Source: a virus (Duplodnaviria; Caudoviricetes). From it: DNA of 64,000 nt. Below, one piece after another: positions 5,528 to 58,323 of the stretch (the stretch's first letter is position 1; each line of letters opens with the position of its first letter). The notes beneath the pieces are model-generated. The model saw only the letters and a list, made by a program, of their open reading frames with translations, did not search any database and was not told the origin of the DNA. The stretch lies in IMG/VR virus record IMGVR_UViG_3300032233_002826, positions 54,532 through 118,531 of that record; one strand, 5' to 3'. The position numbers and the translations under genes are program-made.

Positions 5528-6469
5528 CTAGGCACTCATGCTCAACGCGAGGTCGAGCGCCTTGCGGTTGTCGTTCGCCCCCGTGCCGAACCACAGACTC
5601 CCCATGCGGTTATCGGCCGTGCGACCCCGCGAGTAGTTGAGATACTCGTTGTAGGCGTTGTACGCCGCCCACCACGTTCCCGACACTCCGGGCATCGACT
5701 GGAGCGTGCCGTCCATCCGGCCGACGATATCCGCGATGATATTCGTCGTGCGGGTGGGCAGGTCGGTATCGACCGTACCCTCCACCCCCAGCAGCGTTTT
5801 GACATACCGCCGAACGTCCGCCACGTTGATGCCCCGCGAGGCGAGGAGCCGATACTGGTCGGCAGTAGCCTCGAACTCCGCATTGGCGGTGTTCACGACC
5901 TCGCGGATACGGTCGAGGTTGAGAGACAGCCGCCGGGTATGACGCACCCGCAGCAGTTTCGACGCCGTGGCACAGTGGGCAGCGGCGAGGGTGTTCGCGC
6001 AGACCACGCGGATCGGGGTGAAACCCACCCGTACCGCCGTCGTGCCGTCGTGGCTGTTCGACAGCAGCAGAAACTTGGCGACCTCGTCGCCCGGCACGAC
6101 CTCCGCCCGATTCCGGTTCAACTCCGCCAGCACCCAGACCTTTGCACCGCAGTGCAAGGCACCGGCCGTATGGAGGTTGACCTCGCCAGCGTCGATGAAC
6201 GGCTGGAACCAGTCGAACGCCGCACTGTTCTGGAGCGGTTGGTAGCGGGGTCCGACGACCCCCAGCACACTACCATCGCTCTCGCGGATCGTAGCACGGG
6301 CAGGTACGGCCTTGCCGGTCGCCGTGAACAGGTCGCACAGACCAACGCTCCAGTCGAGGCCGGAGGCGACAATCGCCTCGCCAATCGTCGGTGCCGACTC
6401 CAGCCGATTGCCCAGCCCGTGCCACGGGGTTTCTTTGACGTAGAACATGGTTTCGACAGCGTGAGCCAT
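5528..6469 (-). CDS. DUF932-family phage/plasmid protein, copy 1
   Basis: PWHGLG, LLLSNSHDGT and TPIRVVCANTL motifs; start moved to MAHAVETM after GGAG. Confidence 0.85.
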   Translation of the reverse strand: MAHAVETMFYVKETPWHGLGNRLESAPTIGEAIVASGLDWSVGLCDLFTATGKAVPARATIRESDGSVLGVVGPRYQPLQNSAAFDWFQPFIDAGEVNLHTAGALHCGAKVWVLAELNRNRAEVVPGDEVAKFLLLSNSHDGTTAVRVGFTPIRVVCANTLAAAHCATASKLLRVRHTRRLSLNLDRIREVVNTANAEFEATADQYRLLASRGINVADVRRYVKTLLGVEGTVDTDLPTRTTNIIADIVGRMDGTLQSMPGVSGTWWAAYNAYNEYLNYSRGRTADNRMGSLWFGTGANDNRKALDLALSMSA

Positions 6470-6576
6470 GATGACAAACTCCAGAGAGAAACAAGGGGAC
6501 GCGAGCCGCACGGCCCGCCGAAACTATTACATTCTACATGGGATTTTATTTCGGCTTTTTTTCGCGTTTTTTTTGG

Positions 6577-10112: not shown

Positions 10113-11054
10113 CTAGGCGCTCATGCTCAAAGCCAGTTCAAGAGCCTTGCGATTATCGGCGGCGCCAGTTCCAAACCACAGGCTATTCATCCTGTTGTCG
10201 GAGTTGCGTCCGCGAGTGTAGTTCAAGTATTCGTTGAACCCGTTGTACGCAGACCACCAAGTTCCCTTGACTCCCGGCAGGGATTGCCGTGGCCCCTCAA
10301 TCGTGGCAAGAACTTCTTCGATGATGTTCTTGGTACGAGTAGGCATATCGGCATCACTGACGTTCTCAACGTCGAGAAGAATCTTGACGTATCGACGCAC
10401 ATCGGCCTGATTGAAATCCTTGCTAGCAAGGTAGCGATACTGATCGGCAGTAGCCTCAAAATCAGCATTTGCCGCGTTCATAATGTCCCGTACCTTTTCA
10501 AGATTGCTGGCAATCTTTCGGGTGTGACGAACCCGAAGAAACTTGCTGGCAGTAGAACAGTGGGCAGCGGCCAACGTATTGGCACATACAACCCGAATCG
10601 GCGTGAAGCCCGGTCGAACGGCAGTAGTTCCATCGTGCGAGTTGCTGAGAAGAATGAACTTCCTCACATCGTCCCCCGGAACAATCACGCTAGGGTCGCG
10701 ATTCAACTCTGCCAAAACCCATATCTTCCTGCCCTCATCAAGAGAACCGGCAGTATGAAGTCGAGCCTCACCACTATCCACAAACGGCTGGAACCAGTCC
10801 AGTGCATCGGCATTCTGGAGCGGTTGGTATCGCGGGCCAACAACGCCAAGAATGCTGCCGTCACTTTCACGAACCGTGGCACGATGACCAACTCTCACAC
10901 CGTCCGCCGTGAACAAGTCGCGGAGCGCCACAGTCCAATCAAGTCCTGCCGCCACGATTGCTTCACGAATCGTAGGAGACTCATTCAATGCCACGCCAAG
11001 GCCATGCCAAGGAGTCTCGCCAACGTAGAACATCTTTTCGACCATATGGGCCAT
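10113..11054 (-). CDS. DUF932-family protein, copy 2
   Basis: Close paralog of 5528..6469 with the same motifs. Confidence 0.85.
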   Translation of the reverse strand: MAHMVEKMFYVGETPWHGLGVALNESPTIREAIVAAGLDWTVALRDLFTADGVRVGHRATVRESDGSILGVVGPRYQPLQNADALDWFQPFVDSGEARLHTAGSLDEGRKIWVLAELNRDPSVIVPGDDVRKFILLSNSHDGTTAVRPGFTPIRVVCANTLAAAHCSTASKFLRVRHTRKIASNLEKVRDIMNAANADFEATADQYRYLASKDFNQADVRRYVKILLDVENVSDADMPTRTKNIIEEVLATIEGPRQSLPGVKGTWWSAYNGFNEYLNYTRGRNSDNRMNSLWFGTGAADNRKALELALSMSA

Positions 11055-11239
11055 GATGAAAAACTCCAAGAGAAAAACACAAGCCACAGTGGCTTGCCTT
11101 AGTCATTACATTCTACATCGACTTTTGTTTTCCAACTTTTTCGGCTCAAACCTTAGGATAAATGCTAACTCAAAGGGAGTAATAAAAACTCCTCCCGCCT
11201 TGAACGGGAGGAGTCTCTACGATTCGATTCCTGCTATCA

Positions 11240-15299: not shown

Positions 15300-15923
15300 A
15301 AAACTCTTTCTTTATAGTGGGCTATCGACACATTATTGTAACATTCTACACGGGATTTTATTTGCGTCAATCGTCGATTTCTACCAGAAAACCATCCTCA
15401 CCCTCTTTCAGATTGGTATAGATAACAATCTGTCCATATTCATCTGTTGCTATCTCAACCCACGATGGCAGAAAGTTCTGCATACTAACCCGTAAATCTT
15501 CTAGTGTCATATTGTCCATACAATCGCCTTTCAGTGTGATGGAAACAGCCCTTACGCAGAGATCATATTCAACTATAATATTTGATGGACGCTTGGCTGA
15601 TGGCGGAGCGAGTCTTTTGACGCTTGGGACGACTATCGTGCTGGCCGCTGCCAGAGCGGTGCGCAGAGTGGCCTTTGCCCAACTTCCAAATCGGCCGCAC
15701 ATTGAGTTTGATTTTCATTTTAATCACATTACATAATAAACGGCGTAACCATTTGTTACCATAGAGATTGCCTCGCTCTCTGGTAATCTCACAATAGAAC
15801 CGCGAGAAATGTTCTCAAAGTCCCGAATGAACTGAACGCGGTATCTCATTGGTTGATCCTCTACTACCTAACATTCTACATGGGATTTTATTTTAGATAT
15901 ACCGGCTGTAAATGGATCGACTT

Positions 15924-16001
15924 AGTGGGCGACGGGATTTGAACCCGCAACTCCTCTTGTATTTAAACAAGTGGAACTCTAACCGATTGAGTTACGCCCA
16001 C
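15924..16001 (-). tRNA. tRNA-like RNA with enlarged anticodon arm, identity undetermined
   Basis: Normal acceptor, D and T arms; anticodon arm CCACTTGT-TTAAAT-ACAAGAGG is 22 nt instead of 17. Confidence 0.7.
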
Positions 16002-16022
16002 CGATAGTTTTACGATAAGTGT

Positions 16023-16130
16023 CCGGTATCACGCACCTACCAACCCGATACCTTTCGGGTATCTAGGTTTCTATCCGACCCCTGTTTGTAATCAGCGAAT
16101 CTTTTACGCCCCGATTCTTACCCGCACCAG
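16023..16130 (-). ncRNA. Candidate structured RNA
   Basis: Closing stem CTGGTG/TACCGG, GAATC/GATTC stem and GATACC hairpin with GAAA loop. Confidence 0.4.
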
Positions 16131-16132
16131 TA

Positions 16133-16221
16133 TGGAGCGACCATACCGATTTGGAACCGACCACGCCCGCTTCCGTCAAGTTGCGAACTTGCTCAGGCGA
16201 GAGGCATCGGCTACTGATTGT
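16133..16221 (-). pseudogene. Degenerate tRNA-like element ending in CCA
   Basis: CAAG-TTCGCAA-CTTG anticodon-like hairpin, weak T-arm, mismatched acceptor stem. Confidence 0.4.
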
Positions 16222-16223
16222 AT

Positions 16224-16360
16224 TGGAGCGTGTGTCGGGGATCCAACCCGACAGAGAGCAGCATAAGCCTTACCATAGCCTAGTTCGGCAACCCCATACA
16301 CCCCTTAGATGCAGACGCTGTTTGCTGGGCTATCTCTACGGTATCAGCAGATACACACGC
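16224..16360 (-). ncRNA. 137-nt tRNA-like RNA with encoded CCA
   Basis: Perfect acceptor GCGTGTG/CACACGC-T-CCA, T-arm TCGGG-TTGGATC-CCCGA, very long central arm. Confidence 0.65.
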
Positions 16361-16412
16361 AAGTTTGTTTTACAGTTCTATAAGAGCCTATTCTGTTTTT
16401 TTATAAGCCAAA

Positions 16413-16642
16413 TACGGTTGGTTATTCCGCTACCTTTACGTCCACCATGCTCTGGCAAGACATGGCTAAGGACGAGTTTGTACGGGCGGGTGGGTTCGCT
16501 TTGGATTGTCATTGGGTATCCTACTACCCTCGATCTGGAGCTTGACCACCTACTTCACTGCCCGGCTTTCCATCGTAGGAGACAGTCAGCCATTGAGGAG
16601 CCGCTCACTGCGGCCTAGCAGCCCGTTTTGTTTCGACAATCC
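16413..16642 (-). ncRNA. Unassigned structured ncRNA, copy 1 (core 16482-16642)
   Basis: Begins right after motif A at 16647; helices covary with copy 2. Confidence 0.75.
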
Positions 16643-17129
16643 TATGACATTCTACATAGGATTTTATTTTTTGTCTAGGGAAGGACTCTGCCTTTCAGCG
16701 GAGTCCTTCCCTGTTGCCGCCACAAATCACGCCTAATCTAGTCCCTCAGCATGGACCCACGGATGTTTGTGTGGGAGTCACATCTTTATTATCCCACATC
16801 CCCTCTAAAATATAAATGCAATGCACAAGTTTATTTCACCTTGCGAGGGTTTCGCCGCCAGCGTCCCGGCGGGTTATTGTTAGGGACGGATGGATTCGTT
16901 TTAGGTTGTCAACAGTGTGCTATCACCTCGACCCACCACTTGACCATCTACTTCACTGCCCGCCTCCCCATCATAGCAGACGGTTTGGCATTGAGGAGTT
17001 GCTCATGCAACCTAGCAGTCCCTTTGTTTCGACAATCCTATGACATTCTACATAGGATTTTATTTTTTGTCTAGGGAAGGACTCTGCCTTTCAGCGGAGT
17101 CCTTCCCTGTTGCCGCCACAAATCACGCC
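16627..17129. repeat. Identical 107-bp direct repeat at 16627-16733 and 17023-17129
   Basis: Contains terminator-like hairpin, motif A and the 5' end of the ncRNA. Confidence 0.92.
16741..17038 (-). ncRNA. Unassigned structured ncRNA, copy 2 (core 16882-17038)
   Basis: Begins right after motif A at 17043; helices covary with copy 1. Confidence 0.75.
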
Positions 17130-17326
17130 GCTTCACGATCTTCACGATCCAAACCGCATTCTTCAAACAACTCCAACTCCATCTCTGCCTGCACTTCGGC
17201 TTCAATAGCAGCCATTTCTTCGCTCAAATCATCTTCGCCATAGACCATCCTCATGTTGTTGTCATCATCATGACGGGATTCGATTGCCCAAAGAAACTGC
17301 TGAAGTTCATCATCAAACTTAGACAT
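17123..17326 (-). CDS. Small acidic hypothetical protein
   Basis: GGGAG RBS before MSKFDDE; terminator follows. Confidence 0.65.
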   Translation of the reverse strand: MSKFDDELQQFLWAIESRHDDDNNMRMVYGEDDLSEEMAAIEAEVQAEMELELFEECGLDREDREAA

Positions 17327-17567
17327 TTTAAGTCTCCCATGATTAGGACAACCAGTGTTGCCCATGCTTCTATAACATTCTACATGGGATTTTATTTTTC
17401 TGCCCTGTCGATTTTTTTGGCTATTGGATAAAGGCTAACTCTGACTAGAGTTCCAAGTTATTGGATAAAGGCTAACTGGCTATTTATTTTTATTTTATTA
17501 GAAAATATGTAGAAAAAGAAGGTTTATTAATTGGTAATGGCTCCTAATTAATATTTGTGCAGATTGA

Positions 17568-17849
17568 CTACACTTCTGAAAACCCAACCATTTCCACCCT
17601 ATATTTTTTATTATCAAATTCGATTACATCACCAACACTAACGCTGGGATGCTGTCTGGGCTGAAAATCATTCTGACCATAACGAAAAATAATTTGAAGG
17701 CACTCATCAAGAGAAACTCTCTTGTCGTGATAATCCTCCATGATGAACCTGTTCTCAGGAACATCAACAATTCTAATCTCGCCGGGATTCCCAAAAGCGA
17801 GCATTTGAACTTTGAAACAAGTGTATCTATGTTCTGGAAGTGTCATCAT
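17568..17849 (-). CDS. Hypothetical protein
   Basis: AGGAG RBS; PSVSVGDVI motif near C-terminus. Confidence 0.65.
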   Translation of the reverse strand: MMTLPEHRYTCFKVQMLAFGNPGEIRIVDVPENRFIMEDYHDKRVSLDECLQIIFRYGQNDFQPRQHPSVSVGDVIEFDNKKYRVEMVGFSEV

Positions 17850-27787: not shown

Positions 27788-28077
27788 GTCTTGTATAAAT
27801 TCTATATTAATTTTTATTTTAGGGGCGACTATCTTTAGTCATTAATCTCTATATCCTTAGTAGGAAACCAACCGCTCCAACCATCAGTAGTATTCTTTAA
27901 TAGAATAGCCGTTTCTCCCGGCCAGCACGGCACAGACTTTTCTTCTTGCTCAACTATCCATTCACCGGGATGACGCTTCAAGCGTTCCTTGGTGAACTTT
28001 CTAGCATTCTGTTTAGCAGTTAGTTTCATTCTTTTTCCTTTGTATTGACCGTGGTGAGGATAGCAATTTTGAAAAGT

Positions 28078-28409: not shown

Positions 28410-28492
28410 GGGCGAATGGGTGGAATCGAACCACCTCCTGTAAACACACAGTCGTGTGTGTGCTTACCTGCTACCATTACATCACATTCGCC
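28410..28492 (-). tRNA. tRNA-like RNA with 11-bp anticodon stem
   Basis: GGCGAATG/CATTCGCC acceptor, canonical T-arm, GTAAGCACACA-CACGAC-TGTGTGTTTAC arm. Confidence 0.7.
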
Positions 28493-28668
28493 ATATGCAA
28501 GGATCGCCATTTCTGACGATCCAAGATCCCTCTATCCTCATGGGTAGACAGGTCAGTGCTATTACTTAGTATACATTCTATATTAATTTTTATTTTAGAA
28601 GGGAGGGTGGCTTTTCTCATAATGTTTGCTGCTCACATCGTAAGAAAGCCACCCTCCCGAGCAGCAAC

Positions 28669-56217: not shown

Positions 56218-58323
56218 TCAAGCCTCCTTGCTGTATTCGGTCTGGAACTTGTTGTTGATATAATAAACCAACTCTTTCAGAACATTTGCTCGTCCGTAAT
56301 AATTGATTTCCAACAACGGATACTTATCAGCAATATCTTCTTCAATTTTCTGCATCCGCTCAAACCGCTGGAAGGCAGTCTTGTAGTGCTTATACTTACG
56401 AATAATAGTGTCTTCAACATACTTGCGATTACGAATTTCCTTGGGATAAAGAGAAAACAACTCTTTGATCTTGGGGCATTCAATCTTTTCTGCGTATGCT
56501 CTCAAATTGAAAAGACTTTGATTGATATTGTGAAAAACATTAGACTCGATTTGTTCGTCAGAAACAGGAACAAACGATTCCAAATCATCAATAACATCGT
56601 CATATTTTGAAACATTATCAAGCGAAACCACCTTTTCATAATCTCCTTTGTTACACTTGATAACTGTCCAATCATTATTTTTCAGGTACGATACCATTTT
56701 GACAAAATTAGCATTGCGAAAATCATACTTTTCTTCATCACCATTGGGGACAAGAATATAATTTTCACCATTATTTTCCATAGTGGTGAGCGAAATATCT
56801 TCCTTTGCATTGGTTTCAACTCTGTAGCCATTTCGACCATGTTCTAATGCCAAAGCACGAATTCCGACAACTCCTTCAATTCGCTTTTTAGCAACATAAC
56901 TGATTTTATCATGATTTACTTCGCTAAGAAGAAAAGCGTTGGCACACTTCTTCAACTTAGAGTTGTAGGCAGGATCGCAAGATACAAAATAAACGTGATC
57001 GGCTCCAAGACTAATCAGTTTCTTTGCCTTGCGCTTCTTGATAATATCGCTATACTCGCAATCAACAATTACAATTTTATCTTCTTCTGTAATCCTAACT
57101 GTCTTTTCGTCATTCTTGCAACGAATGACATTGCGAGTATCTTGCTCTTCTTCAAAGTAATAAGAAATCTTTGTAAACTTATCGCACTTGACGTAAAAAT
57201 TAAGCCCGTGCATTTCAAAAGTAACATCTTCGTGGGAATACTCCAACTTGATCAAATCTTTTGGAATATGATTGAAGGTGAAAGTATTCTTCAACTTGCC
57301 ATACACGTTCATATAAGAAGACAAATTCTCAAACTTGACATCAAATTCTGAGCGAACAATTTCCCAAATATTGGCAATTGCTCCTTCGCATACGATTTCA
57401 AGTTTGGCAATGTTGCCCGCGTCGTTTGCAACTTCTTCACGGCTTGCCGCAACGTCAATATCTCCATTGTTTACTTCAATAAAAGTAAGATTATTGGGAT
57501 GAATGACTCCGCTCAACTTCCTAAGATTTTCAAGCGAATACTGAAACTTAGAAATTCCATAGGGAATCTTGTCGATAAGAACAAATGCCTTATGAGTGAC
57601 ATACTTTGTCTCAAATAAATTCTCCAAGAAATCACTAGCGGGCATAATAACAAGATTGTTTTTATGATACTTGAAATTAGGATTTGCAAATTCATTTGGA
57701 ATTTCAATGTCTGTAATTCCATGGAGTTCCGGCCTAACTTCCCAAAAATAAGTAGTGCGATATACGGCGTTGATAAAACGCGGAATATCTGCTTCCTTTA
57801 CAGGAATTTGAACTTCCACCCCATTAGGCTCGTTTGTTTCAACTTCGTTGACTAATTCAAAAGTTCCATTGCTGCTTCGACCAGTATGAGCGACGTAAGT
57901 AGAACAAGTTCCATTGTAGTAACTAACCACAACAAAACTATCAGTATATGCCCATGCGCTCTTTGCTCCAAGTCCAAACCCTCCAGTTTGCTGATTGTCC
58001 TTACGCTTGGTACTGATTCCGTAATTAACAAAGACTTCACGAACACGGTCGCGGCTCAAACCCACTCCATAATCACGAATTTTGAGGCTGCTGTCGATTT
58101 TGGTGGGCAAAGTGACTTTGACCGGCTTATCAGCCTTGTTGGCTTCTCTGTGACTATCACGGGCGTTACTGAGGTATTCCTGAGTAAGAGTCTGGATAGG
58201 ATTGCTGTAAAGTCTATTGCGAAGAATTTCAATAATGGTACTAACGTCACCAATGTTGAAATCATAACTAACAGCATCGTTATTGTTGGTAGAAACGGTC
58301 GAGTTGTTTGTTGCAATCTTCAT
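56218..58323 (-). CDS. rIIA: rIIA-like protein with GHKL ATPase N-terminus
   Basis: LYSNPI..EYLSNARDSH, IRDYGVGL, STK, GGFGLGAKS and ASRE motifs. Confidence 0.8.
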   Translation of the reverse strand: MKIATNNSTVSTNNNDAVSYDFNIGDVSTIIEILRNRLYSNPIQTLTQEYLSNARDSHREANKADKPVKVTLPTKIDSSLKIRDYGVGLSRDRVREVFVNYGISTKRKDNQQTGGFGLGAKSAWAYTDSFVVVSYYNGTCSTYVAHTGRSSNGTFELVNEVETNEPNGVEVQIPVKEADIPRFINAVYRTTYFWEVRPELHGITDIEIPNEFANPNFKYHKNNLVIMPASDFLENLFETKYVTHKAFVLIDKIPYGISKFQYSLENLRKLSGVIHPNNLTFIEVNNGDIDVAASREEVANDAGNIAKLEIVCEGAIANIWEIVRSEFDVKFENLSSYMNVYGKLKNTFTFNHIPKDLIKLEYSHEDVTFEMHGLNFYVKCDKFTKISYYFEEEQDTRNVIRCKNDEKTVRITEEDKIVIVDCEYSDIIKKRKAKKLISLGADHVYFVSCDPAYNSKLKKCANAFLLSEVNHDKISYVAKKRIEGVVGIRALALEHGRNGYRVETNAKEDISLTTMENNGENYILVPNGDEEKYDFRNANFVKMVSYLKNNDWTVIKCNKGDYEKVVSLDNVSKYDDVIDDLESFVPVSDEQIESNVFHNINQSLFNLRAYAEKIECPKIKELFSLYPKEIRNRKYVEDTIIRKYKHYKTAFQRFERMQKIEEDIADKYPLLEINYYGRANVLKELVYYINNKFQTEYSKEA

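Follow-up and report, generated by a model that had tools for sequence, protein, structure and literature searches.

A promoter-driven, protein-free array of structured RNAs in a large uncultured lake phage

Phages carry tRNAs, and a few unexplained small RNAs have been known beside them since the 1970s. In a large uncultured freshwater (lake) phage, a gene-free stretch of ~1.2 kb (17073-15899, minus strand) within the window (the whole stretch of DNA analyzed, 64,000 nucleotides) holds two phage promoters and a row of structured RNAs, which raises the question of what kind of transcription unit this is and what its RNAs might do. The initial annotation had read it as an RNA-only operon of non-canonical structured RNAs. 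The promoters, the lack of a coding ORF and the conserved structured RNAs all stand, whereas the parsing of the 3′ half does not, and our analysis supports reading the stretch as a promoter-driven set of non-canonical structured RNAs without protein genes.

Promoters, coding signal and the repeated cassette

The promoters belong to a motif (motif A) with 25 copies in the window, where 0 are expected; 24 of the 25 lie on the minus strand. The two copies in the stretch, at 17066-17043 and 16670-16647, are identical, read TAGACA-17-TAGAAT with TG before the −10, and are of the σ70 type, the phage's own. Promoter P1 (17045-17073, minus strand) comprises the −35-like TAGACA, a 17-nt spacer and the TG-extended −10 TGTAGAAT (17052-17045), and P2 (16649-16677, minus strand) is identical to it. 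Given this excess of motif copies, the proposal that two of them drive the stretch holds, and both are real promoters. Early transcription, as also proposed, is suggested solely by the promoter type and the neighborhood of small ORFs.

All minus-strand ORFs within the stretch are of 44 aa or fewer, and two longer ones, of 155 and 107 aa, lie on the plus strand. Neither these two nor the short ORFs matched a Pfam family above cut-off or a PHROG at E ≤ 0.01, in agreement with the description of the stretch as RNA-only. As a self-contained operon, on the other hand, it does not hold up. The stretch has no terminator, and its last unit, F, runs on to the next motif A promoter (15871-15894, minus strand) and then a 41-aa ORF (15849-15724), again with no terminator between F and that promoter. 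In 17 of ~50 relatives a ribosome-binding site and a start codon follow the last unit within ~40 nt, with no promoter between them; the window and 15 relatives have a new promoter ahead of the downstream gene.

P2 lies in the second copy (16627-16733) of an exact 107-nt repeat whose first copy is at 17023-17129. The repeat contains the last bases and stop codon of the ORF at 17123-17365, a hairpin, the promoter and the transcript start. The hairpin between the two copies of the duplicated RNA noted earlier is indeed present, as a 15-bp hairpin upstream of P2 (16677-16712, minus strand) with a twin at 17073-17108. We rejected it as a canonical terminator, since no U-run follows it, and the Rfam matches to Ref55 and U7 correspond to this repeat hairpin at chance level. 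The duplication itself is also confirmed, with a marked break in identity: the 107-nt block is 100% identical (17129-17023 and 16733-16627), whereas the next ~140 nt, which form the two copies of unit A, are only 78% identical. The second copy of unit A is not a recent copy of the first. Because of this difference, and because unit D is truncated at the repeat junction, the layout of the window would be best accounted for by recombination at the promoter cassette, in which the 107-nt block joined two short arrays, the first made of A1, B and the D stump, and the second of A2, the 137-nt RNA, E and F.

The RNA units and their conservation

About 1.15 kb holds at least five conserved RNA units, which follow one another in the window as A-B-D (stump)-A-137-nt RNA-E-F, and in every unit the 5′ and 3′ ends pair with each other to make a closing helix. 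The linkers between units are 5-8 nt long and A/C-rich (AUACA, UACAAACA) and not 2 nt as first described, and the case for tRNA-enzyme cleavage made from a 2-nt spacing falls with that value. In the arrays of relatives, CAAUACAA-type linkers separate the units; the window retains it only loosely (ACAAA-type). The linker word AAUACAA also precedes ribosome-binding sites in relatives (27 of 178). The 3′ half had been divided into a degenerate tRNA, a 108-nt segment and an enlarged-arm tRNA; alignments of relatives give two units in place of these three, E and F. Support for structure was taken from such comparative alignments and not from single-sequence folding, whose z-scores were unremarkable (−0.9, −1.3 and −2.1) and were left out of the evidence.

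Unit A copy 1 (A1; 16883-17022, minus strand) is a 140-nt structured RNA closed by GGGAC/GUCCC, with seven homologues in IMG/VR contigs. In its alignment (A4), 35 pairs are 97% paired and nine of them show compensatory changes, compared with 2.2 in shuffled alignments (a count reached in 0 of 500 shuffles) and 0-1 in slid controls. Copy 2 (A2; 16483-16625, minus strand; 143 nt) has diverged from A1 and from all relatives and contributes compensatory changes to four elements: closing helix, first hairpin, GCC/GGC helix and GAUGG/CCAUC helix. A1 is followed by unit B (16830-16873, minus strand), a G+C-rich hairpin domain conserved directly after A in two relatives (L011 and L013), and by a further hairpin (16771-16803, minus strand) that folds and is found in L013, with its 3′ part in five loci. 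Next comes a 30-nt 5′ stump of unit D (16732-16761, minus strand), which had been overlooked in the initial annotation. Its bases match 24 loci that continue into the full unit of about 150 nt, whereas the window continues into the 107-nt repeat, at whose junction D is cut. A2 is followed by a hairpin (16476-16438) and an A/U-rich stretch (together 16361-16476, minus strand) with no homologue among the fetched loci. An identity with EGFOA-assoc-1 (RF02970) was rejected for this segment: the match scores 18.2 bits against a gathering threshold of 224.5 and is a partial model laid over the A/U-rich linker.

The 137-nt tRNA-like RNA was located at 16224-16360 (minus strand), as described, with a 7-bp acceptor-type helix, a D-like hairpin and a T-type arm; where an anticodon arm would be, it has a long irregular one. 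Its four homologues have a mean column identity of 90%, with compensatory changes in the acceptor, in the inner AUAGCC/GGCUAU helix and in the T stem. The CCA end, in contrast, is kept in only one of the four relatives, which weakens the analogy to a tRNA end.

Unit E (16090-16218, minus strand; 129 nt) consists of a closing helix, a second helix around a variable domain and, beside the 3′ strand, an invariant hairpin of 5 bp and an 11-nt loop, giving a cloverleaf-like layout. Its motif recurs in 38 contigs of IMG/VR, and 29 sequences were aligned (the window and 28 relatives). Homologues are 104-171 nt long, their length varying by swapped hairpins, and in the window's unit E a U-A pair of the closing helix replaces C-G. 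The scaffold helices of both E and F are invariant, leaving within-family covariation nothing to act on.

Unit F (15899-16082, minus strand; 184 nt) is a near-invariant pseudoknotted scaffold around a variable tRNA-like insert. The pseudoknot pairs the loop at 16029-16023 with the complementary 3′ tail at 15905-15899. A 15-nt pattern scan of viral contigs returned mostly chance matches, and a context filter left about 22 contigs with F, of which 16 relatives were aligned with the window. In this alignment (A3), 52 pairs are 98.6% paired; 16 of them show compensatory changes, in 74 cells, compared with 8.9 in shuffles (0 of 500 reach this value) and with 1-4 pairs in slid controls. Furthermore, a short form without the tRNA insert, mini-F, shows matching double changes in loop and tail: the pseudoknot AUACCGG/CCGGUAU of 17 F copies becomes GUACCGA/UCGGUAC in five mini-F copies.

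The insert (15924-16001, minus strand) has intact acceptor, D and T arms and matches the Rfam tRNA model (RF00005) with 47.5 bits against a threshold of 29, and its arms covary in 17 homologues. It differs from a canonical tRNA in having no assignable anticodon and in that its ends continue into conserved scaffold pairings. The anticodon arm consists of 2 bp, an A-A mismatch and 5 bp (an 8-position stem) with a 6-nt loop, UUAAAU, and thus lacks the canonical 5-bp stem and 7-nt U33 loop; ARAGORN reports it as 'tRNA-???' with a 2-nt 'anticodon'. In homologues the loop is 5-7 nt long and varies in sequence. No canonical tRNA is close to the insert, the best matches being other F inserts. The two flanks of the tRNA-like domain never vary; they form pairs between themselves and with the 5′ scaffold, and an assembled contig from an RNA library spans both. 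The enlarged-arm tRNA of the initial annotation is therefore real as a tRNA match, but is embedded in F and is not a separate unit. Together, the comparative alignments indicate that F is one RNA, whose scaffold encloses a tRNA look-alike without a usable anticodon loop.

Metatranscriptomes add to this picture, in the form of assembled contigs of relatives, at low depth and from libraries that may contain DNA, from which neither ends nor levels can be read. The whole of 15904-16078, up to 4-5 nt from the ends of F, is covered by a lake metatranscriptome contig of 173 nt, and a low-depth assembled contig of a relative from a marine metatranscriptome, whose library may also contain DNA, covers unit E. 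In four RNA-type runs, 16236-17140 was mostly uncovered, except for pieces in one run, again contigs of relatives, over 16507-16608 and 16732-16772.

Spread of the arrays and comparison with known RNAs

The array is not unique to one phage, but one member of a widespread and reshuffled family. Arrays that, like that of the window, have a promoter, helix-closed units, A/C-rich linkers and an end in E and/or F are carried by 56 fetched loci in more than 30 module orders. Homologues were thus found in phage metagenomes, although not in the single conserved order that might have been expected. Instead, the order follows a rule: arrays always open with A (or another 'first' unit, N) and close with E and/or F. 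Two relatives (L049 and L035) have canonical tRNA genes within their arrays or immediately after them, which would link the arrays to tRNA processing; this is not the case in the window.

Database searches agree with the non-canonical nature of the units. Within the stretch, only the tRNA-like core matches an Rfam family, at gathering thresholds and at E up to 10, and none of the known self-cleaving ribozymes (pistol, hammerhead, twister, hatchet and others in Rfam) was found at E up to 10. In the loci of 22 relatives, Rfam returned only tRNAs and, outside the arrays, pistol ribozymes (in L011, L015 and L019). Neither ARAGORN nor Rfam called a tmRNA in the window. Searches by blastn of the stretch, and of E with F, against 50,697 GenBank phage records gave only chance matches to tRNA arms, and exact-pattern scans for the F tail and for the E loop gave 0 matches each in 185,579 bacterial and archaeal genomes. 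The linker word and arrays of this kind were not found in the literature; the unnamed candidates of a structured-RNA survey of IMG/VR (PMC10690425) were not compared.

No partner gene, whether for tRNA repair, Ro60 or another function, was consistently present among the genomes examined, and no reverse transcriptase, nuclease or other gene was consistently adjacent to the arrays. Ro60 (TROVE, PF05731) is absent from the phage's own record and from five relatives, four of them complete at 230-245 kb. An RtcB gene was found in one relative only and a PolyA_pol nucleotidyltransferase gene in the phage's own record only; T4-type RNA ligase 1 gave no match, but control genomes gave none either.

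Several known RNAs invite comparison. RNAC and RNAD of phage T4 (139 and 119 nt) have tRNA-like termini. Also called species 1 and 2 RNAs, they are small non-tRNA RNAs of the T4 tRNA region whose role is unknown (PMC3014915). The present units resemble these RNAs of a large lytic phage in being small and not tRNAs, and may likewise be co-transcribed with tRNA or tRNA-like genes. They differ in comprising many families, whose cassettes share a linker, have a promoter of their own and appear in varying order across more than 50 contigs; F, moreover, wraps a scaffold around a tRNA look-alike. Among the 50,697 phage records, in which T4-type phages should be represented, no homology of the stretch to RNAC or RNAD was found. 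The large RNAs GOLLD and ROOL are associated with phages and tRNAs. Together with large intergenic regions of several RNAs such as EGFOA and EGFOA-assoc-1 they share with the array the feature of gene-free regions filled with conserved structured RNA; here, however, a row of separate small units takes the place of one large RNA, and no Rfam match to GOLLD or ROOL was found in the stretch. YrlA-type bacterial Y RNA combines a tRNA-like module that lacks a decoding anticodon loop with a helix of its 5′ and 3′ ends, and can serve as a substrate of RNase P (PMC4201824). F is similar, the pairing of its two ends providing a stem that carries a tRNA-like module, but differs in its pseudoknot scaffold with an invariant sequence of its own, and the YrlA and Y RNA models gave no match in 15400-17600 at E up to 10.

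Processing, possible function and alternative readings

What, then, would such a row of RNAs do? The stretch is probably a polycistronic array of separately folding, processed small RNAs. Host RNA polymerase would produce one long precursor per promoter, soon after infection, and host tRNA-maturation and RNA-decay enzymes would cut the unpaired linkers, presumably with RNase P acting at acceptor-like helices and RNase E or exonucleases in the linkers, to release stable RNAs of about 130-185 nt that would act in trans. E and F (or mini-F), the universal 3′ units, may also cap the 3′ end of the transcript. Processing by RNase P fits F less well, since its tRNA-like domain runs on into the scaffold and would thus lack a free 3′ end; a cut there would split F at a site that the RNA contig spans.

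The arrangement might instead act in cis, as a long structured leader or 'punctuation' whose units and linkers steer the processing of early mRNAs and shield their ends, much as tRNA-like t-elements act as processing punctuation in plant mitochondria; RNAs with roles of their own would then not arise. Such a role would fit the missing terminator after F, where promoter and ORF come at once, the ~17 of 50 relatives in which the last unit lies within ~40 nt of a ribosome-binding site and start codon with no promoter, the linker word that also precedes start sites, the fixed array ends (A or N first, E and F last), and mini-F, which abuts the next promoter like an end cap. A leader is not needed, however, where a fresh promoter serves the downstream gene, as in the window and 15 relatives. 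The arrays have strong promoters of their own, the internal units are very diverse and yet highly conserved, the 20-70 invariant bases in E and F exceed what a processing signal needs, and the RNA-library contig matches F alone; we regard a cis role as possible but unlikely. We consider it improbable that the units are guides or scaffolds partnering phage or host proteins, with F as a Y-RNA-like component and the others serving other complexes. The YrlA-type architecture of F (PMC4201824) and the combination of invariant scaffold and variable insert, typical of protein-bound RNAs, would suit such complexes, but no Y RNA model matches even at E up to 10, Ro60 is missing from the phage's own record and from the four complete relatives, the arrays have no constant neighbor gene, be it for a reverse transcriptase, a nuclease or another product, and nucleotidyltransferase and RtcB were each found in just one genome.

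It is very improbable that the row is the remains of a tRNA gene cluster, pseudo-tRNAs and spacers without present function. Helices kept by compensatory changes, long invariant blocks that persist across otherwise different contigs, dedicated strong promoters, and a lack of tRNA ancestry visible to Rfam in A, B, E and the F scaffold all argue against decay, for which one could cite the tRNA-type arms of several units, the unusable anticodon arm of the F insert, the truncation of D in the window phage and the segment at 16476-16391, which has no homologue. Hidden small protein genes on either strand are hardly conceivable: although ORFs of 38-44 aa (minus) and of 107 and 155 aa (plus) exist, none has a family match above cut-off, those on the plus strand oppose the promoters and span units that are reshuffled or length-variable in relatives, and substitutions are compensatory in helices and do not follow codon position.

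For separately processed RNAs acting in trans, the most likely kind of function, offered as a guess, is that of mimics that bind or distract host proteins recognizing the tRNA shape; the tRNA shape, the strong expression signals and the rapid turnover of cassettes all point this way, although a decoy role taken alone is unlikely. Targets might include tRNA-cutting defense nucleases and enzymes that process or charge tRNAs. A broader and rather unlikely proposal is that the array is an RNA-based toolkit for counter-defense or host takeover, in which each cassette would trap or mislead a particular host protein, cassettes would be swapped as hosts change, and the F pseudoknot scaffold would present exchangeable tRNA look-alikes as bait.

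The arrays place in a clade of large lake phages a set of promoter-driven, protein-free cassettes with a dozen or more uncatalogued conserved RNA folds, exchanged among these phages like genes. As new RNA families, E and F are well defined, their cores are strongly conserved, and they lend themselves to structure determination and biochemistry; F is a natural scaffold displaying variable tRNA-like inserts. If the RNAs act on host proteins, they would represent a new layer of phage-host conflict, waged through RNA shape.

Promoters and absence of coding signal

The stretch occupies positions 17073-15899 on the minus strand and is a promoter-driven row of separately folding RNA units (A, B, D, E, F and a 137-nt RNA, with N as a further unit in related arrays); the spacer word ACAAUACAA lies between units in arrays of this kind. 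It is entered by two identical copies of motif A (AAAATAAAATCCYATGTAGAATGT), the promoter of this phage, both aimed into the stretch as the initial annotation had proposed. The motif occurs 25 times in the window, where none is expected, and all copies except one lie on the minus strand. A TAGACA box, set 17 nt ahead of a TAGAAT box with a TG extension, gives it the look of a sigma-70-type promoter. Promoters of the same type stand immediately upstream of several of the 14 ordinary tRNA genes in the window (9566, 27368, 33795, 36801 and others), none of which encodes CCA. In the promoter copies at 17034-17059 and 16638-16663, a 9-bp inverted repeat (AATCCTATG / CATAGGATT) flanks the −10 box. 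Since its plus strand reads as a hairpin and then a T-run, this DNA could halt converging transcription or act as an operator.

The proposal that the stretch encodes no protein also holds: the longest minus-strand open reading frame (ORF) between 17040 and 15899 has 44 aa, and neither the minus-strand ORFs nor two longer antisense ORFs match Pfam above cut-off or PHROG at E ≤ 0.01.

Folds of the RNA units

Unit A is present twice (17022-16883 and 16625-16483, minus strand) and its fold shows covariation. In a nine-sequence alignment, 97% of the cells of its 35 predicted pairs are standard pairs, and nine pairs are changed on both sides, against a shuffle mean of 2.2; none of 500 shuffles reaches nine, and sliding the partner by 1-3 columns leaves 0-1 double-changed pairs. 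Copy 2 alone supplies the double changes in four helices: GGGAC/GUCCC of the closing helix becomes CGGGC/GCCCG, GUUGC/GCAAC of the first hairpin becomes GCCGC/GCGGC, and the GCC/GGC and GAUGG/CCAUC helices are changed as well. Unit B and the hairpin at 16803-16771 are common to the window and two uncultured phage contigs, L011 and L013, and for the segment 16476-16391, which has one good hairpin, the fetched loci gave no homologue.

The 137-nt RNA (16360-16224, minus strand) was described initially as tRNA-like, and its fold agrees: the acceptor-type helix has 7 bp, and there are a D-like hairpin, a T-type arm and, in the position of the anticodon arm, a long arm with interruptions. All these features are kept in four homologues, where the acceptor helix, the T stem and an inner helix (AUAGCC/GGCUAU) show changes on both sides. 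The encoded CCA may be part of the linker rather than a tRNA-type end, because it is present only in the window and L011, the three others having ACA, AUA or something else. The following "degenerate tRNA" and part of the "108-nt segment" do not stand as separate units, since the alignment of relatives (29 distinct sequences) gives a single unit E at 16218-16090 on the minus strand. Its closing ends pair as ACCAGU/GCUGGU, for which the window has the double change AUCAG/CUGAU, and a second helix, AACCG/CGGUU, surrounds a domain whose hairpins are exchanged whole between contigs and which may be followed by an optional extra hairpin. Abutting the 3′ strand of the closing helix, where a T arm would be, is a 5-bp hairpin that is invariant and has a loop of 11 nt. 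A reading frame in unit E is excluded because the homologues span 104-171 nt.

Unit F (15899-16082, minus strand), the most informative of all, combines flanks that are nearly invariant across 17 distinct sequences with a tRNA-like part in at least four versions. Its consensus fold of 52 pairs is 98.6% paired, with double changes at 16 pairs (74 cells) of one scaffold hairpin and of the acceptor and T stems, a number reached in 0 of 500 shuffles and compared with 1-4 for slid partners. The 5′ end pairs with two stretches flanking the tRNA-like part, one immediately ahead of it (GAUAG/CUAUC) and one immediately behind (GGGUCG/CGAUCC), and in this predicted fold the tRNA look-alike would therefore branch from a helix with neither end free. 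The insert has good acceptor, D and T arms (47.5 bits as tRNA in Rfam), and its anticodon arm consists of 2 bp, an A-A mismatch, 3-6 further pairs and a 5-7-nt loop that varies between contigs; it is unable to decode normally. Among 231 predicted tRNAs, its closest neighbours are other F inserts and no ordinary tRNA. Furthermore, the scaffold hairpin loop AUACCGG (16029-16023), invariant within F, is complementary to the last seven bases (15905-15899). A shorter relative of about 95 nt, mini-F, is present in five contigs (L018:1647, L026:8795, L034:5181, L043 on the minus strand and L050:10465) at the extreme end of arrays, abutting the −35 box of the next promoter; it keeps the GAUAG/CUAUC helix and a GUAAAA joint and lacks the tRNA insert. 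Its loop GUACCGA and tail UCGGUAC are altered relative to F on both sides at both end positions, which supports a predicted loop-tail pseudoknot.

Reshuffling of units and joining of two arrays

Searching IMG/VR for exact matches to a conserved 22-nt word of unit A retrieved five contigs, and a looser word seven. In each, the consensus promoter TTGACA ... TGTAGAAT stands ahead of a series of differing folded segments, which in relatives are divided by the recurrent A/C-rich word CAAUACAA or a close variant and in every case have both ends paired together. The unit E word occurs in 38 IMG/VR contigs and the unit F word, after context filtering, in about 22. Scored with simple signature words for 16 segment types, the 56 array-bearing fetched loci show more than 30 different orders, the window reading A-B-D-A-137nt-E-F. 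The first and last positions in these orders are fixed: A or the alternative unit N comes first and E and/or F last; D usually lies in the middle. Ordinary tRNA genes stand within or immediately behind the arrays of two relatives (L049 and L035). Pistol self-cleaving ribozymes (54-56 bits, above threshold) are present outside the arrays in three relatives (L011:2645-2707, L015:3618-3680 and L019:5432-5494), and none was found in the window. Elsewhere in the window, another tRNA-like RNA, whose anticodon arm is replaced by a long paired one (28410-28492, minus strand; −10 box at 28575-28580), stands alone behind its own motif-A-type promoter and another hairpin, and is homologous to an "insert-bearing tRNA" unit within relatives' arrays (e.g., L017, L038, L049).

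The RNA initially described as duplicated does exist in two copies, but they are uneven: a 107-nt block is 100% identical at 17129-17023 and 16733-16627, and the next ~140 nt are only 78% identical. The block carries the end of the ORF 17123-17365, stop codon included, together with a 15-bp hairpin, the promoter and the start of the transcript. Copy 1 of unit A is almost identical to A of L011 and L013, and copy 2 resembles no other and is therefore no fresh duplicate of copy 1. A 30-nt stump of unit D (16761-16732) matches the start of D in 24 loci, where D measures ~150 nt, and ends exactly at the repeat junction. Judged from these sequences, two arrays were joined through recombination inside the identical promoter block. 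The last bases of unit D (…CCUCACCACGG) and the linker UCAAUACAA also occur at 28041-28060 (minus strand), directly before a ribosome-binding site and the ATG at 28029, and look like an array remnant fused to a gene start.

Source phage, expression and possible roles

The window makes up the right half of a virus record of 118.5 kb (23% complete by CheckV) and encodes a rIIA-like ATPase (56218-58323), an SNF2 helicase and two DUF932 proteins; the latter form a paralogue pair (5528-6511 and 10113-11087, minus strand) on the left, G+C-rich side of the early region. Its source is a large lytic phage of a jumbo-phage group, because four relatives sharing the RNA units have complete genomes of 230-245 kb, with terminal repeats in three. 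Most public runs in which parts of the stretch occur carry a freshwater, lake or river metagenome label, the shares being small in nearly all. No partner gene consistently accompanies the arrays in the source record or its relatives. A 484-aa open frame matching the PolyA_pol family (CCA-adding-type nucleotidyltransferase, 73 bits) lies in the source record outside the window (G000:C1:39109-39507) and has no counterpart in the four complete relatives, and an RtcB gene occurs in one relative only.

Expression was assessed in assembled contigs of public runs, all of them sequences of relatives. A complete 173-nt contig from a lake metatranscriptome, ~91% identical, spans 15904-16078, within 4-5 nt of both F ends, and a 218-nt contig from a marine metatranscriptome spans unit E and continues through a CAAUACAA linker. 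These contigs fit expression, and a discrete RNA for F, and are not proof of either. We propose that each promoter would yield one precursor, which host tRNA-maturation and decay enzymes would cleave at acceptor-like helices and within the A/C-rich linkers, which are unpaired, giving stable, trans-acting RNAs of 130-185 nt. Our guess is that these bind or distract host proteins that recognize tRNA, as strong promoters, tRNA-like shapes lacking decoding capacity and fast module turnover would fit such a role. Units E, F and mini-F, with which arrays end, may also shield the 3′ end.

The main rival is that the array acts in cis as punctuation. There is no terminator after F, and a third of the relatives' arrays lead directly into a ribosome-binding site. 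Across the relatives' E/F loci (567 kb in total), the linker word AATACAA occurs 178 times on the array strand and 86 times on the other; 27 of the 178 immediately precede a ribosome-binding site and start codon. This twofold excess and the pre-start cases suggest that AATACAA may serve these phages generally as punctuation or as a leader element.

Most pieces of the stretch match no Rfam family; the tRNA-like core matches tRNA and is the only Rfam 15 match at E up to 10; 22 loci of relatives gave tRNAs only, plus the pistol ribozymes. There was no match to the stretch among GenBank phages, neither the unit F tail nor the unit E loop occurs in a set of 185,579 bacterial and archaeal species (one genome each), and a full-text literature search found no description of such arrays or linker. 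A survey of IMG/VR predicted 8,495 unnamed structured RNAs (PMC10690425), which may include some of these units. The closest described likeness to the arrays is the two small RNAs of the T4 tRNA region, whose biological role is unknown (PMC3014915), and that to unit F is the YrlA-type Y RNAs of bacteria, in which a tRNA-like module is joined to a stem (PMC4201824). Unit F was rejected as a Y RNA on the lack of a model match and of a Ro60 gene in the source record or five relatives. The initial annotation had partly misread the details, but its finding is real: the stretch belongs to a widespread and hitherto undescribed family of RNA arrays in phages.
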